DNA of 6,515 bases from a virus (taxonomy: Duplodnaviria; Heunggongvirae; Uroviricota; Caudoviricetes): positions 1 through 6,515 of IMG/VR virus record IMGVR_UViG_2541047958_000004, one strand, 5' to 3'. How positions within the stretch are numbered: the stretch's first letter is position 1; every line of letters begins with the position of its first letter. The notes below the pieces were generated by a model, which had not been told where the DNA came from, did no database searches, and worked only from the letters and a program-made list of their open reading frames with translations. The position numbers and the translations under genes are program-made. Below, one piece after another: positions 1-6,515 of the stretch.

Positions 1-582
1 TTACCCTATAGGTGCTACTGGCCATTCAATATCCGGTGCAGTTGATGTATCAACACGGTTCAGCAACACCCGATACTTTTTCCAGGCTTCCAGCAACGAC
101 GCCTCTTCTTCCGTTGCGATCTCCAGATCTACAGCATCCTGAAGCGGCGCTATATGCTCACTGGCTACCTGCATCAGGCTGTTTTTTGTTTCTTCCGCCT
201 CCCGGATCCGGAACAGTTTTTCTGCTTCCGTATCCTTCACCCAGACTGTACCGTTCCACTTCTGAAACTCCCCTTCCGGGGATAACCAGGTGACATTTTC
301 CGGTAATGAGCCGAGTTCAGAAATAAATAACGCGTCGCCGGAAGCCACGTCATAGACCGTTTTACCACGATGGTCTTCAACGAGATGCCACGATGCCTCA
401 TCACTGTTGAAAACAGCCACGAAGCCTGCCGGAATATCTGGCGGTGCAATATCGGTACTGTTTGCAGGCAGACCTGTATGAGGCGGAATATATGCGTCAC
501 CTTCACCAATAAATTCATTAGTTCCGGCCAGCAGGTTATAAATTTTTATGGTCCGTGCTTGTTCACTCATTCTGAATGCCAT
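1..582 (-). CDS. tfa: Tail fibre assembly protein (lambda Tfa-like chaperone), complete, 193 aa; stop codon at 1..3 (TAA on minus strand)
   Basis: Seen: ATG at 582 (rc of 580..582), GAGG Shine-Dalgarno 8 nt upstream (rc of 591..596), and the ATG overlaps the stf stop as TAATG. The translation (MAFRMSEQ...[31 protein letters not shown]...[22 protein letters not shown]) matches phage lambda Tfa / E. coli TfaE-type proteins almost end to end, as recalled from memory. No search was run. Confidence 0.9.
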
Positions 583-2474
583 TATGCGAGCCTCACAATA
601 TAGTTAAATGCGATGTTTTTGACGGTGTTTTCCGCGTTACCAGCAGCGTTAACGGTGATGGTGTGTCCATGTGAGCCAATCGCAACCGAGTGCGTATGCG
701 CACCAATACCTACAGTATGTGCATGTGCGCCAGAACTTGCTGCAGTACCAGACAGCGAGTGGGTATGAGCACCTGCTGACTGTGTCTGAATACGTTGATA
801 ATACGATCTACTGGAAGAAGTCCCCGGGCTTACTTGATACTGTGAATCCTTGACATAAGTGAACCCACCGCCATCATAAAATGCTAACGCAGAACCGCCG
901 CCTCCTGGCCAACGAATACCATTACCATGAGTATGAGCACCGGCAGACCCCGTAGAGCCACTCAGACTGTGCGTATGCGCCCCGGTGTTATTCGTGGATT
1001 TAGTGCCGTAATCAAACGACGATGTGGTTTTCGTCCCCAAATCCGTACTGGATGCGCTGGCGCTGTGGGTGTGCGATTTAATGCCGTCCTGTTCCTGAGA
1101 CAATACGGCCCGACCACTGGCAGGTTTGCCCTTAATCGTCCAGCCACGCATATCAGGGATCACGCCTGACGGATAAGCCGCTGCAAGTTTCGGGTATGCA
1201 GATTTGTCAAAAGTCTGCCCCTGCATCAGGGCATAGCCAGACGGAACGGTATCCGATGGCCACGGGATTGGTGCGCCGACTGGGTAGCTTTCTGGTGGAA
1301 GATTTTTCGAGGTATAAACTTCTGCCCAGTCTTCCTCAAAACCATAGCCATCTCTTGAGGAACGGTAGAACAGACCTCCATTTCTGTAATGCGCCTTCAT
1401 CTGCAGGGTCCGGCAACTTCCGACTCCGGTATAGAAGTTAACCAGAATATAGCTGTCGCCAGAGCGGGTGACATTGTAAGCGCCTGATTCGGCATTCCAG
1501 GGAACGCCACCATCCGCATCGGCATATGTATCAGTTGCCCTTCTGGCAAAAGCAGCCACATGCGCAGCGGTTAAAGTAATATCTTTGGAACCATCAAACT
1601 CAACACCAGAAACCAGTCTTGGCGTTTGCAGCTTTGTTGCTGTTAATGCATTACCGTTCAGACTTGCGGACAGTTTGGTTCCAATAATCAGTTCGCCGGT
1701 TGCGTTATCAATAGCAAACGGTCTTAATGTATTCCAGCCACCATAAACATCACCTTGATTGGTAAGCAGCAGGTAAGTTTTAGCGCCATCATTACGCCAT
1801 AATGCACCATACTCCCCACCTATCATTCGAATCTGATTACCACCACGCGCTACAATTTCGTCTGTGGCAAAAAGTTTTTTGCACGACAAGTTATCGTTAA
1901 CGATTAACGAATGAGACTCATAAAAACCACGCCCACTCTTAAAATCAAGGATAACGTCCGCCGCGATACATTCAGTCGCCGGATTTGTTGCCCCAAACTT
2001 ATAGGTCGTATCATTAACAACGAGATCAGCACCAGGTGCGGATATTGACAGGCCATCTTCGATAAACGCAAAAACAGGGAAAGCAGCGCCATCAACATAG
2101 AACACAGAGCGCAAATCATCGCCCTTATTACTCATCATTATTGAGTGGATGGCTCGTTCATTGTTTTGATATTGCCAGAACATGCCATAAGCATAACGCC
2201 CCCTGTCAGTCCAGCCACCAGGCATAACAAATCCGTTAAACTCGCAGTTATTCATCGGATCGCCTGCGGTTCGCGTTGCCGTGGTGATAATGACCCTTGA
2301 TGCCAGTTCGCTTACTGAGCCAGCAGAACGCATAACAACAACAGGGTAATATTTTCCAGATGTTGCACCTGCAGGAGCATTAACCCGCACATAACGCATA
2401 CCGCGCTTATCAGCAAAGTCTGTTTTACTGACCGCGTTAATGTTGTTCAGGAAGTGTCCCTTAAGGCAAAACAA
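582..2474 (-). CDS. stf: Side tail fibre protein (Stf-like), mosaic; start uncertain (TTG at 2474 is the longest ORF, first ATG at 2399); possibly a 5'-truncated copy of a longer stf
   Basis: Seen: 630-codon ORF ending in TAA at 582..584. The C-terminal ~235 aa (from ...GAPIPWPSD onward; ...[32 protein letters not shown]...[30 protein letters not shown]) matches the lambda Stf C-terminal region from memory, including repeated GAHTHS/GAHAHT His motifs. There is no Shine-Dalgarno before either candidate start, and the frame stays open 27 codons upstream of the first ATG. Confidence 0.8.
585..1290 (-). other. Lambda-Stf-like C-terminal receptor-binding/tip region of the tail fibre, with repeated HxH (GxHxH) motifs
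   Basis: Seen: at least seven H-x-H motifs in the last ~200 aa (SHTHS, GAHTHS, GAHTHG, GAHTHS, GAHAHT, GAHTHS, SHGHT). Established knowledge: HxH repeats in T4 gp37-type fibre tips coordinate metal ions, and the lambda Stf tip together with Tfa determines receptor use. Boundaries are approximate. Confidence 0.7.
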
Positions 2475-2493
2475 ATTCTATGCGTTCAGTCAT

Positions 2494-3504
2494 TCATGCT
2501 TTCCACTTCAGGACACCCGAATTTCTCGCGTGCATTAAAAAACGAATCAGCAACAACAGCTGGCTGCCGTGTTTTTCTTCAAAATCTTTTACCCCGGCGT
2601 GCAGTTCGTTATGACATTTACGGCACAGCGGAATAACAAACAAATCATCAGCCTTTGTTCCCATCCCTCCCAGTCCATGACCAATGATGTGATGCGGATC
2701 ATCTGCCTGATTACCGCACGTCATGCATTTCTGCGTTTTTACCCAGCGCGTGTATACAGGCATCTCTTCCCGTTGTGGTTTCTGGCGCTGGAGATACTGA
2801 GCCGGTGACTCCGGATCAACAGCAATGCTGACCACCGTCTTTTCCTGTGGCGGGTTTTGCTGGTGGGCGTGAGGCAGCGGCGCAAGATTTTTTGTGCGCT
2901 GCTTCAGTATGCTGGTGGCGGTCTGCTCTCCCGGTACGATGTCGCTTTCACGGTACATTGAGCGGATTTTTTCCGCACGCAACCCCAGCGAACGACGTAA
3001 TACCGCTTCCGGTAGCACGTCCGCCACCTGATTGCGGACCGCCCACCAGGATAATTCAGCCAAAGATAATTCACGCTCCTGCGTACCGCTTATTGCGTGA
3101 CCGATGACGTCAATCATCCATGCTGACAGGTTTTGATGAGCAAGCTGCCCGAGTGATTCGGATGTCTGGTCACGCAACTGGTTGTCGCAGTGCCAGCACA
3201 ACACCATTGCGCCGGTACCATAACGGTGAATGACAGTTTCGCTGTGATGATAATCGCCGTGTGGCCACTGGCAGGATTTAATATGGCGCAACAGCCAGTC
3301 AGACAATGCACCAGCACCACCAGCAGCACGAATCACCCGTGCGTTACTGAAAAACGGCAGCAATGTTTTGTCTTCCACCAGCGGCTGGCGAACGGCAGGA
3401 ACGACCCCTGACGGCAGATTACGCATGCTTTTCGGTTCCGGCTCCACCAATACCCGGGTATTGTGGAATACTGGCATGGATTCACGGCCCGGCTTAACGA
3501 TCAC
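2494..3504 (-). CDS. DUF968-like prophage protein with two Cys/His clusters (HNH-like C-terminal motif); 336 aa from GTG at 3504, alternative ATG start at 3477
   Basis: Seen: long ORF ending in TGA at 2494..2496. C-terminal motif CMTCGNQADDPHHIIGHG...LCRKCHNELH (CxxC...HH...CxxCH) and N-terminal cluster CQWPHGDYHH...CWHCDNQ. From memory it resembles E. coli prophage DUF968 proteins (YdfU-type); not verified. Neither candidate start has a clear Shine-Dalgarno. Confidence 0.7.
   Translation of the reverse strand: MIVKPGRESMPVFHNTRVLVEPEPKSMRNLPSGVVPAVRQPLVEDKTLLPFFSNARVIRAAGGAGALSDWLLRHIKSCQWPHGDYHHSETVIHRYGTGAMVLCWHCDNQLRDQTSESLGQLAHQNLSAWMIDVIGHAISGTQERELSLAELSWWAVRNQVADVLPEAVLRRSLGLRAEKIRSMYRESDIVPGEQTATSILKQRTKNLAPLPHAHQQNPPQEKTVVSIAVDPESPAQYLQRQKPQREEMPVYTRWVKTQKCMTCGNQADDPHHIIGHGLGGMGTKADDLFVIPLCRKCHNELHAGVKDFEEKHGSQLLLLIRFLMHARNSGVLKWKA
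2599..2727 (-). other. HNH-like / zinc-finger-like motif region within the DUF968-like protein (aa ~260-302)
   Basis: Seen: CxxC (C260, C263), HH (271-272), CxxC-H (C294, C297, H298), H302. The spacing is reminiscent of HNH/His-Me finger nucleases; calling it that is inference. Confidence 0.45.
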
Positions 3505-3603
3505 CAGCCCGAGTTCCGGTATCCGGCGTTAATTGTTAACTGGTTAACGTCACCTGGAGGCACCAGGCACCGCATCACAAAACTCATTGTTGAGGGCGCG
3601 ATA
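3505..3603. promoter_or_regulatory. Divergent intergenic region between the DUF968 start and the first plus-strand small ORF; candidate promoter/operator region
   Basis: Seen: tandem palindromic hexamers GTTAAC-TG-GTTAAC (3535..3548) and an adjacent CACC-rich segment with short inverted repeat CCTGG-aggca-CCAGG (3553..3567). No sigma70 -35/-10 pair of good quality could be assigned by eye on either strand. Confidence 0.3.
3592..3596 (+). promoter_or_regulatory. Shine-Dalgarno (GAGGG) for the 62-aa small ORF
   Basis: GAGGG lies 7 nt upstream of ATG 3604. Confidence 0.5.
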
Positions 3604-3792
3604 ATGAAAACGTTATTACCAAACGTTAATACGTCTGAAGGTTGTTTTGAAATTGGTGTCACTATCAGTAATCCTGTATTTACTGAAGATGCCATTAACA
3701 AAAGAAAACACGAACGGGAGTTATTAAATAAAGTATGCATTGTTTCAATGCTGGCCCGTTTACGTCTGATGCCAAAAGGATGTGCACAATGA
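3604..3792 (+). CDS. Small hypothetical protein, 62 aa (MKTLLPNVNTSEGCFEIGV...), first gene of the recE-proximal operon
   Basis: Seen: ATG at 3604 with GAGGG Shine-Dalgarno; stop TGA 3790..3792 overlaps the next ORF's ATG (ATGA). The longer 109-aa form starting at 3463 would overlap the divergent DUF968 start and lacks an RBS, so the internal ATG is preferred. Its position corresponds to the small genes upstream of recE in Rac-type early-left operons (inference). Confidence 0.5.
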   Translation: MKTLLPNVNTSEGCFEIGVTISNPVFTEDAINKRKHERELLNKVCIVSMLARLRLMPKGCAQ

Positions 3793-3980
3793 ATCCAGTA
3801 TTTGCACTTATTCTGACGGTTTTTCTTGTTTCCGGAGAGCCAGTTGATATTGCAGTCAGTGTTCACAGAACAAAGCAGGAATGTATGGCAGCAGCAACCG
3901 AACAGAAAATTCCAGGCAACTGTTATCCGGTCGATAAAGTTATTCACCAGGATAATAACGAAATCCCGGCAGGATTTTAA
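3789..3980 (+). CDS. Small hypothetical protein, 63 aa, with a hydrophobic N-terminus (MNPVFALILTVFLVSG...) and two Cys; possible membrane or secreted small protein
   Basis: Seen: ATG at 3789 overlapping the upstream stop (ATGA), AAGGA Shine-Dalgarno at 3776..3780 with 8-nt spacing, and ~16 hydrophobic residues at the N-terminus. The ORF-track start at 3735 has no RBS. Confidence 0.55.
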   Translation: MNPVFALILTVFLVSGEPVDIAVSVHRTKQECMAAATEQKIPGNCYPVDKVIHQDNNEIPAGF

Positions 3981-4059
3981 AACAGCACCGTAATAAATAT
4001 CCAGTTTCATTCTTATATGTCAGCAATGGCAGAGATTTGTTCACCCTTAAATCTGTGAT

Positions 4060-4064
4060 GAGGT
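4060..4064 (+). promoter_or_regulatory. Shine-Dalgarno (GAGGT) for the RecE-like gene
   Basis: GAGGT lies 9 nt upstream of ATG 4074. Confidence 0.5.
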
Positions 4065-4073
4065 TTACCAATA

Positions 4074-6515
4074 ATGAGCACTGATAAAGAAGAATTTGCA
4101 CTATATTGCGAAGCAAAAAATGACAAAGTAAGAAAACGCCTGGGAATTAAAGGTGGTTTTTACTGGACTACAGCAAAAAAATTATCTGTTGCAATCTCCC
4201 GCTGCATTACCGCAATGGATGACAACGATTATGATGAAGACGACTTTAAAAAACCCGTCCGCGTCAATTTGCCCGTTGTTGACGACCTTCCGCCAGAAGG
4301 CGTGTTTGATACTGAATTCTGCAACCGCTATGAAAAAGGCGGGAAAGATGGCATCACAATGACATTTATCGGCCCTTCCCCCTCTGTTCAGGACAAACCA
4401 GCCAGCACTGACAATACCAACATCAACGGCGAAGACATGACTGAGATTGAGGAGAGCATGCTTCTGCCTGTCTCCGGTCAGGAACTGCCCATTCGTTGGC
4501 TTGCTCAACACGGCAGCGAAAAACCAGTAACGCACGTTTCACGCGACGAACTCCAGGCATTACACATTGCACGGGCTGAAGAACTACCGGCTGTTACTGC
4601 CCTGGCTATTTCGCATAAAACCAGTCTGCTCGACTCGCTGGAGATTCGCGACCTCCACAAACTGGTTCGTGACACTGACAAAGTTTTCCCTAATCCTGGT
4701 AATTCAGACCTGGGACTAATAACTGCTTTTTTCGAAGCATACCTGGACGCTGACTACACTGATCGGGGTCTGCTGACAAAAGAGTGGATGAAAGGAAATC
4801 GTGTTTCACGCATCACCCGCACGGCTTCCGGTGCTAATGCTGGCGGTGGGAACAAAACCGATCGCAATCCGAATTTAGTACACACCCTCGACACACTGGA
4901 TGTGGAGATTGCAGCAGCCACACTTCCGATGGATTTTAATATTTATGAAATTCCGGGCAGCGTTTATCGTCGCGCAAAAGAAGTAGTCCTGAACAAAGAA
5001 AGTCCGTTCAAAGAATGGTCCGCAGCACTTCGTGCAACCCCGGGTATTCTGGACTATTCCCGCGCCGCTATTTTTGCACTTATCCGAAGCGCACACCCTG
5101 AATTTTATCACTACCCGGGACGCCTTCAGGGGTATATCAACGCCTATTTGACGGAAACTGATCACGAGAACCCCAGCAAGGAAACTCTCACAGCTGCCCG
5201 GCATACGCCGGAAAAAGATATCCTGGAAGAAATTAACCGCGAGGTGGTTACTGAGCGTGAAACAGAAGAAGAAAAACCACAACCATCTGACGCAATGGCA
5301 GGTGAACAGGCAACAACTGAAACAATGGAACCGGATACAACTGAACATGGCCAGAACGCGCAGTCGCTGGATGCTCAGTCGCAGGTGAGTTCCGCTAACC
5401 AAGTAAAAGTCACCGCTGACGAAGTAAACAAAATTATGCAGGCAGCCAATATCAGCCAGCCTGACGCCGATAAGTTACTTGCTGTATCGCGTGGTGAATT
5501 TGTTGAGGGGATTAGCGACCCTAATGATCCGAAATGGGTCAAGGGGATCCAGACTCGCGATTCTGTGAACCAGAACCAGCATGAATCGGAACGGAACGAC
5601 CAAAAAGCGGAACAAAACAGCCCAAATGCGTTACAAAACGAGCCAGAAACGAAACAATCCGAACCAGTAGCGCAACAGGAACCGGAAAAAGTCTGCACCG
5701 CCTGCGGTCAGAGCGGTGGCGGCAACTGCCCTGATTGTGGCGCGGTGATGGGCGACGCAACATACCAGGAAACATTCGATGAAGAGAATCAGGTTGAAGT
5801 TCAGGAAAATGATCCGGAGGAAATGGAAGGCGCTGAACATCCACACAAGGAGAACCCTGGCGGCAATCAGCATCACGCCAGCGATAATAAAACTGGCGAG
5901 ACGGCAGATCACTCAATTAAGGTGAACGGTCATCACGAAATCACATCCACCAGCAGGACGTGTGACCATCTAATGATCGACCTTGAAACCATGGGAAAAA
6001 ATCCTGATGCCCCGATCATCTCAATAGGTGCAATATTTTTCGATCCGCAAACCGGAGATATGGGACCGGAATTTAGTAAGACTATCGATCTGGAAACTGC
6101 TGGCGGAGTCATTGATCGGGACACCATTAAATGGTGGCTTAAGCAATCACGCGAAGCGCAATCTGCCATTATGACCGATGAAATCCCGTTAGATGATGCA
6201 CTGTTACAATTGCGGGAATTTATCGACGAAAACTCCGGTGAATTTTTTGTTCAGGTCTGGGGAAATGGAGCCAACTTCGACAACACGATTTTGCGCCGTT
6301 CATACGAACGGCAGGGGATCCCCTGCCCGTGGCGTTACTACAACGATCGCGATGTACGCACAATCGTTGAGCTGGGGAAAGCCATAGACTTCGATGCCAG
6401 AACGGCTATTCCATTCGAAGGTGAGCGCCATAATGCACTTGATGACGCTCGTTACCAGGCAAAATACGTTTCAGCTATCTGGCAAAAACTGATCCCGAGT
6501 CAGGCTGATTTTTAA
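4074..6515 (+). CDS. recE: RecE-family (exodeoxyribonuclease VIII-like) protein, 813 aa, with the canonical C-terminal nuclease replaced by a DEDDh 3'-5' exonuclease domain; stop TAA at 6513..6515
   Basis: Seen: 2.4-kb ORF with an RBS. The N-terminal ~620 aa contain long stretches I recognise from E. coli Rac RecE (e.g. [134 protein letters not shown]; [46 protein letters not shown]). The last ~185 aa instead carry DEDDh motifs. The symbol is given for the N-terminal family only. Confidence 0.85.
5694..5738 (+). other. Putative zinc ribbon (CxxC-x7-CxxC) within the RecE-like protein
   Basis: Seen: [17 protein letters not shown]. From memory the same motif is present in E. coli RecE. Confidence 0.5.
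5961..6512 (+). other. DEDDh (DnaQ-like) 3'-5' exonuclease domain at the C-terminus of the RecE-like protein
   Basis: Seen: motif I MIDLET (D636, E638), motif [11 protein letters not shown], motif III H-x4-D (HNALDD) with a following Tyr. This pattern defines DEDDh exonucleases (RNase T, Exo I, DnaQ epsilon, oligoribonuclease). The domain begins at an internal Met (ATG 5973). Confidence 0.7.

Follow-up and report, generated by a model that had tools for sequence, protein, structure and literature searches.

The 6,515-nucleotide (nt) stretch of DNA analyzed here, called the window throughout, comprises positions 1 to 6,515 of the IMG/VR record IMGVR_UViG_2541047958_000004. It carries tfa, a fragment of the side tail fibre gene stf and a DUF968 gene on the minus strand, and dicB, ydfD and the gene for an exonuclease of 813 amino acids (aa), referred to below as exo, on the plus strand (Table 1). 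Open reading frames (ORFs) were taken from a six-frame listing of the window, and families were assigned by Pfam and NCBIfam profile scans. A first-pass annotation, made from the letters alone, had described the same layout, with the three plus-strand genes as two small ORFs and a recE-like gene, and had placed both ends of the window on stop codons; the listing and the family matches agree with it on both points. It also had the fibre module and the early operon lying within about 570 base pairs (bp) of each other. This is exact for the distance from DUF968 to the start of the exonuclease gene (570 bp), whereas the fibre fragment itself ends 1.6 kilobases (kb) from that start, with the 1-kb DUF968 gene between.

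Table 1. Genes, gene fragments and junctions of the window, with the evidence for each
Feature	Positions	Strand	State and evidence
tfa, tail fibre assembly protein, 193 aa	1-582	-	Intact; Pfam Caudo_TAP, E 2e-44
stf', C-terminal ~625 codons of the gene for a 1137-aa side tail fibre	ORF 582-2474; stf homology 582-2463	-	Gp34_trimer, Collar, fibre repeats
rusA', first 10 codons, then stop	2461-2493	-	Frame read from the sequence
Junction 1	2462-2463		stf codon ~513 of 1137 joined to rusA codon 10; shared TA
DUF968 (YdfU-like, HNH-motif), nin-region gene	ORF 2494-3504; gene remnant to 3521	-	5'-truncated; Pfam DUF968, E 6e-64
Junction 2	3519-3521		DUF968 codon ~10 joined to a point 84 nt upstream of the dicB ATG; shared GTA
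dicB leader (retained part)	3520-3603	+	Palindromic CGTTAA-TTG-TTAAC-TGG-TTAACG, then hairpin CCTGGAGGCACCAGG
dicB, cell-division inhibitor, 62 aa	3604-3792	+	Intact; Pfam DicB 1-62/62, E 5e-40; NCBIfam NF049927, 134 bits vs cut-off 100
ydfD (DUF1482), small lysis protein, 63 aa	3789-3980	+	Intact; Pfam DUF1482, E 7e-25
exo, exonuclease, 813 aa	4074-6515	+	Pfam Exonuc_VIII 57-189; Rv2179c-like 632-803, E 7e-68

The serU element and its intact relatives

The window is 100% identical to a part of the E. coli genome GCA_000461755.1 (scaffold KE702638.1; locus L009). There it belongs to an element of 8,865 bp in all, lying between direct repeats of 62 nt that are 97% identical to each other and correspond to the 3' part of the tRNA-Ser(CGA) gene serU (L009 5007-5068 and 13782-13843, 8,775 bp apart). 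The complete serU gene stands at the integrase (int) end of the element. The chromosomal neighbours are zinT and yodB on the left and mtfA on the right, beyond serU, and the exonuclease gene is followed on its right by a DUF4224 xis-like gene, an integrase ORF of 341 aa, serU and mtfA. Thus, among the flanking features for which the annotation had proposed a search, the attachment (att) repeats, a xis-like gene and int were found, and recT, a repressor and a pin invertase were not. Indeed, no repressor, recT, pin invertase, lysis, head, tail, Q or replication gene occurs between the att repeats, and the genes beyond them are chromosomal. 

The element was compared with prophages of 41-42.5 kb inserted at the same serU site, from the seven other look-up loci and from the finished genomes CREC-36, E371 and KV7. 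These intact relatives (HK97-like head, P27-type terminase, lambda-like tail) use the same att site and possess all the late, lysis, replication and immunity genes that are missing from the 8.9-kb remnant. Their genes follow the order att, tfa and stf, lom, J, tail, head, terminase, HNH, lysis, tRNAs and Q; then rusA, DUF968, the hokD region, DUF977, replication genes, ydaT, cro, cI and ydfA/B/C; and lastly DicF, dicB, ydfD, exo, xis, int and serU. Each block retained in the remnant is 98.9-100% identical to its counterpart in KV7, E371 or CREC-36, in the same order and orientation. The segment running from att through tfa and stf up to window position 2463 matches E371 at 98.9% identity, the DUF968 block matches KV7 at 99.9%, and everything from dicB to mtfA matches KV7 at 99.7% without gaps; taken over the three finished prophages, the int, xis, exo, ydfD and dicB genes are 99.7-100% identical to those of the remnant. 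The genes absent from the remnant all map to two deleted intervals of the intact relatives.

The alignment to intact prophages, another check suggested at the outset, fixed both break points at nucleotide resolution, by three-way comparison (for junction 1, of the window, the E371 stf and the KV7 rusA). At junction 1, homology to the E371 stf stops at window position 2463 (L014rc 4105, within stf at 2224-5637), and from 2462 onward the window matches the DUF968/RusA boundary of many prophages at 100%. The missing stretch amounts to about 25.0 kb in E371 coordinates. The N-terminal ~510 codons of stf are deleted with it, and the TTG at 2474 that opens the present ORF is a fortuitous start. At junction 2 the missing stretch measures 8.0 kb against E371, 8.3 kb against CREC-36 and 10.2 kb against KV7; this second deletion took the repressor, cro, ydaT, the replication genes, ydfABC, DicF and the PL-like promoter. 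Since the joints cut within them, stf, rusA and DUF968 are all truncated. The idea that the two deletions had left DUF968 precisely intact was dropped: comparison of N termini shows that its first ~10 codons and the region upstream are gone, and the first 10 codons of rusA remain on its other side.

The proposal of a heavily deleted lambdoid prophage is thereby upheld, about 25 kb and a further 8-10 kb being missing relative to same-site prophages that are 99-100% identical in the retained pieces. In our view it is very probable that a defective lambdoid prophage of 8.9 kb, inserted in the tRNA-Ser gene serU of a single E. coli strain and made by two deletions, has the window as its central part. 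The ancestor would have been a lambda-like prophage of about 42 kb, integrated at serU and carrying a Qin-family gene set; because no one reference matches every block, it must, as far as sequence comparison goes, have been mosaic, with modules of KV7-like and of E371-like type. One event, at junction 1, would have removed about 25 kb from the middle of stf to rusA codon 10, at a TA microhomology, and with it all structural, lysis and late-control genes. The other would have removed 8-10 kb from DUF968 codon ~10 to a point 84 nt 5' of dicB, at a GTA microhomology. Both deletions are colinear and presumably arose by illegitimate recombination. They would have left tfa, three gene stumps, a promoter-less distal part of the PL operon (dicB, ydfD, the exonuclease gene, the xis-like gene and int) and intact att repeats, that is, an element probably unable to make phage, and better viewed as evolutionary debris than as a functional compact element.

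Several observations weigh against this reconstruction. No single sequenced prophage has all the retained modules at 99% identity or more: the central part of stf differs in KV7, and the DUF968 and dicB regions differ in E371. The deletion sizes vary with the reference chosen (8.0, 8.3 or 10.2 kb for the second deletion). The structure is seen in one assembly, itself a scaffold-level draft. The silence of dicB and ydfD is read from a consensus promoter scan, and read-through from yodB, or from an AT-rich segment of 860 bp next to att, could still reach them. Finally, the int allele of the relatives is annotated by PGAP as frameshifted near its 3' end.

Neither junction was found in 5,426 complete E. 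coli genomes, none of which carries 80% or more of the window in one place, and a search for the junction sequences in GTDB species representatives gave no match. The product of the truncated stf gene is known from one contig among 153 billion gene positions; the remnant thus appears to be strain-specific. With so narrow a distribution, the suggestion that such a remnant is a candidate source of domesticated functions finds no support, and nothing suggests that it has been under selection.

That the element could be a functional compact mobile element maintained by selection, such as a satellite or integrative island carrying int, xis, att and a small cargo (DicB, YdfD, the exonuclease, DUF968 and Tfa), is very improbable. 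It has kept its att repeats, the xis-like gene and the 341-aa int ORF, DicB has been reported to protect against phages using ManYZ (PMC6832061, PMC10448788), and the segment dicB-ydfD-exo-xis-int repeatedly survives deletions of the immunity region (see below). However, both junctions cut within genes (stf, rusA and DUF968) and show microhomologies of only 2-3 nt, no gene for replication, packaging redirection or regulation is left, the consensus scan detected no promoter for the operon, and a single assembly carries the structure. We give even less credit to an assembly artefact, in which shared repeats would have caused contigs from different, coexisting lambdoid prophages to be put together in a draft scaffold. 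The sole source is a scaffold of the 2013 era, and the dicB leader region is indeed repetitive, with a median of 2 and up to 12 copies per E. coli genome; yet the window contains no N, the 2-3 nt shared at the junctions are no k-mer-length repeat, the pieces are colinear, oriented as simple deletions would leave them and enclosed by a matched att pair in the right chromosomal context, and the same right-hand junction nucleotide recurs in finished genomes (ES9, and 181 genomes with the L050-type junction discussed below). The last alternative, that some phage family has fibre and exonuclease genes side by side in its regular, intact gene order, is refuted by the flanks, the E371 and KV7 comparisons and the joint alignments: circular or vegetative lambdoid maps do bring tfa and exo within ~8 kb of each other across att-int-xis (phage mEp460, strain 2020C08-115), but there the modules converge on each other from either side of int and xis, whereas here they diverge across a nin-region gene, int and xis lie beyond exo, the att repeats lie outside both, and three genes are truncated at the joints.

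As a two-deletion prophage remnant, the element is of little importance, being a further, strain-specific stage of lambdoid decay, of a well-known kind.

The dicB leader and its recurrent deletion end point

The DUF968 ORF and dicB are separated by 99 bp, in good agreement with the ~100-bp intergenic region from which the first-pass annotation had the two gene groups diverge. The spacer is a deletion scar, however, in which positions 3505-3518 derive from the DUF968 coding sequence and 3520-3603 from the dicB leader, and it does not represent a native control region for divergent genes. A native promoter region there was also rejected on the grounds that the consensus scan of positions 2300-4200 revealed no sigma-70-like promoter on the plus strand. 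Nor did Rfam find DicF (RF00039) in the window, where its only matches were a sub-threshold STnc100 fragment and an IS009 match; in CREC-36, DicF (76.7 bits) lies 90-141 nt to the left of the point where homology breaks. The native promoter, dicBp, is PL-like and repressed by DicA, and both DicB and DicF are toxic (PMC10448788). We infer that the toxicity of dicB and ydfD is tolerated without a repressor as the promoter was deleted alongside it.

In ES9, a remnant at the Qin site, the middle of stf is joined to the very nucleotide upstream of dicB that forms junction 2. Scans for dicB-leader patterns in GTDB representatives, IMG/VR and metagenomes collected 251 loci. Most of them read ...GGATTCTCTG/TATCCGGCGTTAATTG... 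(the slash marks the position of the joint), and unrelated DNA abuts /TATCCG in 12 junction classes: the window, ES9 (L003 13658), L043, L050 (with L160 and L245), L149, L154, L177, L222, L228, L243, L246 and L252. The common right end of these at least 12 independent classes is thus the TA of CTG/TATCCGGCGTTAATTGTTAACTGGTTAACG, 84 nt upstream of dicB. The left ends fall in stf, DUF968, the hokD region, the DUF977/replication genes and ydaT. Wherever a class can be mapped, an early-right gene (hokD region, DUF977/replication genes, ydaT), in colinear order, provides the left partner, and the classes are therefore taken to be deletions. The left ends of two classes, L222 and L228, fall within one gene, at a distance of 19 nt from each other. 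At the Qin locus, 181 complete E. coli genomes carry the L050-type junction. The intact left partner has a TA at the joint in 10 of the 11 readable classes and TAnC in 8 of those 10, to be compared with TATC on the right. Each time, ydfABC, DicF, the repressor and both early promoters are lost and dicB-ydfD-exo-xis-int is kept.

Common ancestry was considered as the origin of the end point shared by ES9 and the window and was rejected, since no relationship is seen between the left partners anywhere up to the joint and since there are 10 other classes. An ascertainment effect of the pattern, which was anchored on TATCCG, is countered by three observations. A scan of IMG/VR anchored on dicB, which covers the 52 nt that follow the TA on its right and detects junctions there with a sensitivity of ~56%, found one junction class and two small duplications. 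Among 134 loci collected without bias, none has a break point between -87 and -10. The rusA end of junction 1, used as a control, did not recur, and no other junction class was found there in IMG/VR.

The DNA to the right of the TA is palindromic (3527-3549 and 3553-3567). On the bottom strand, positions 3519-3575 are predicted to fold into two hairpins closed up to ...CCGGAT, with a free energy (dG) of -10.7 kcal/mol and a z-score of -2.6. A variant of the leader that lacks the TCTCTG immediately to the left of the TA (GGAT/TATCC) occurs at about 90 IMG/VR and metagenome loci, for example L081 and L145; without these 6 nt, a small GGAT-N7-ATCC hairpin is left with no loop. L257 and L258 carry duplications of 7 nt and 3 nt, respectively, in the palindromic stretch alongside.

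On balance, we lean slightly towards the view that junction 2 is one case of a nucleotide-precise deletion hot spot, directed by sequence or structure, which would be a preferred route to loss of immunity and permanent crypticity in Qin-type prophages. Two candidate mechanisms would fit. The nascent strand could fold back on the adjacent palindromes, with a template switch primed by its last 2-4 nt (terminal GATA); or a site-specific break could be followed by joining of the end through the TA microhomology. None of the recognition sequences considered (Pin/Gin gix half-sites, the gyrase consensus, the lambda att core, insertion sequence ends and restriction sites) seems to fit the hot spot, and a literature search retrieved no description of a deletion hot spot at dicB. 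If such a hot spot is real, the selective "domestication" that the distal PL operon seems to undergo in cryptic prophages of E. coli could in part reflect a mechanistic bias. The recurrent end point is the only part of the present findings that merits follow-up.

The exonuclease and other features of the element

The annotation called the 813-aa protein RecE-like, and saw in the element a remnant that had retained only recombination and fibre functions. The latter view is not supported, and the label fits only part of the protein, in which a RecE-like N-terminal region (residues ~1-615) is continued by a DEDDh 3'-5' exonuclease domain at the C terminus (632-803). The NCBIfam ExoVIII model (PRK09709 equivalog) aligned with it over profile positions 1-602 of 877 only, scoring 943 bits, below the cut-off of 1269, and the C-terminal 170 residues correspond to the Rv2179c-like domain PF16473 (E 7e-68). 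Profile scans detected no PD-(D/E)XK RecE nuclease domain in it. In a search of the PDB the only matches were to a 227-aa exodeoxyribonuclease, over residues 633-766, with no RecE chain among them. Judged by its predicted domains, that is, by the partial match below the cut-off, the DEDDh C terminus and the lack of a RecE chain among the PDB matches, the 813-aa protein is not exonuclease VIII. No recT lies beside its gene, which is followed on its 3' side by the DUF4224 xis-like gene and int, and no RecT-family gene is called in 22 kb of the GCA_000461755.1 locus. Rather than a RecET operon, the cluster dicB-ydfD-exonuclease represents the distal portion of a dicBF/PL operon of the Qin type. 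As for the fibre functions, stf is truncated and there is no tail for its product to be attached to. A "RecE-like" label, then, need not mean a RecET system, and the "tail fibre module" is here a stump.

The exact 813-aa protein, the most conserved cargo of the element, was found in 229 blocks of the collection, and an exact-protein look-up, which returned eight loci, placed it unchanged in seven full-length prophages. A widespread prophage "exonuclease" (the YdfE family in Qin) thus appears as a domain swap, in which the N-terminal ~600 residues of RecE are joined to a DEDDh Rv2179c-like domain, with no RecT partner. Of the two small proteins encoded upstream, DicB inhibits division in a MinC-dependent way and blocks phages that depend on ManYZ as well, and YdfD acts as a lysis protein (PMC10448788, PMC6832061, PMC8835842); the function of YdfD is described in PMC8835842, and related loci annotate the ydfD product as "lysis protein YdfD".

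At the other end of the window, tfa matches the tfa-stf end of E371, an intact prophage, at 98.9% identity, and the DUF968 gene is 99.9% identical to that of KV7. A full-length Rfam match to IS009 (window 41-239, minus strand; 222 bits, for a gathering score of 117) falls wholly within the tfa coding sequence. The IS009 family was probably built on a conserved tfa segment and does not represent a separate RNA gene.

Between the distal att repeat and tfa lie the 860 bp mentioned above, AT-rich and free of ORFs (L009 5069-5927). Along with tfa-stf, this segment is found 99% conserved in 204 complete genomes; the CREC-36 prophage at the same site lacks the last 664 bp of it. No ORF of the size of an invertase occurs in it and no recombinase is called there, so that tfa has no serine invertase next to it. 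At the opposite end, PGAP calls the integrase of serU prophages frameshifted in three otherwise complete prophages (L012 47370-48420, L014 5154-6204 and L020 1835-2885). The L009 int shows no indel relative to KV7, and its 341-aa ORF ends 25 nt before the annotated end of the pseudogene. The int of the serU-prophage family may be misjudged or may be generally defective.

In the intact serU prophages, the interval between hokD and DUF977 holds a variable cargo (L020/KV7 10725-14400; L004/L011 3770-5104), composed of a RES-domain protein and a Lit-family exclusion protein in KV7 and of an FRG-domain protein in others. This interval looks like a hot spot for defence genes.

Rac and Qin as points of comparison

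A resemblance to the Rac prophage was suggested by the recE-like gene. As in the recET operon of Rac, the exonuclease gene stands in a PL-type early-left operon beside xis and int, and about 600 N-terminal residues of its product are homologous to RecE. The window nevertheless differs from Rac in lacking the PD-(D/E)XK domain and recT, in the C terminus of the enzyme, a DEDDh 3'-5' exonuclease, and in the genes upstream, dicB and ydfD instead of the racC/ydaE/kilR of Rac. The identification with Rac was dropped, the small ORFs being dicB and ydfD and the exonuclease being devoid of the RecE nuclease domain.

The remnant resembles Qin (Kim), which occupies the ydfJ/rspB locus of E. coli K-12. 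Both are lambdoid and defective, with structural genes lost through large internal deletions, and they share a gene set and its orientation, tfaQ-stfQ ... ydfU (DUF968) ... dicB-ydfD-ydfE (exonuclease)-int in the case of Qin. Qin is described as a lambdoid cryptic prophage without most replication, head and tail genes (PMC10448788). The two differ in their site, the remnant being at serU between yodB and mtfA, and in their integrase and xis (DUF4224) genes. Moreover, the K-12 Qin prophage keeps dicA/dicC, dicBp, ydfABC and DicF, all of which the remnant has lost. The exonuclease gene is intact in the remnant, unlike the K-12 ydfE, which is interrupted by IS2. The same style of decay is seen in the Qin-locus variants PEC145, ES9 and UK_Dog_Liverpool. 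PEC145 (L002 14155-16052) is an independent remnant, in which a truncated tail-fibre gene accompanies a DUF968 pseudogene fused to a ydaT pseudogene, dicC and dicA being kept; since it provides another such case, DUF968 stumps beside fibre stumps are seen to recur in prophages of this type with different joints.

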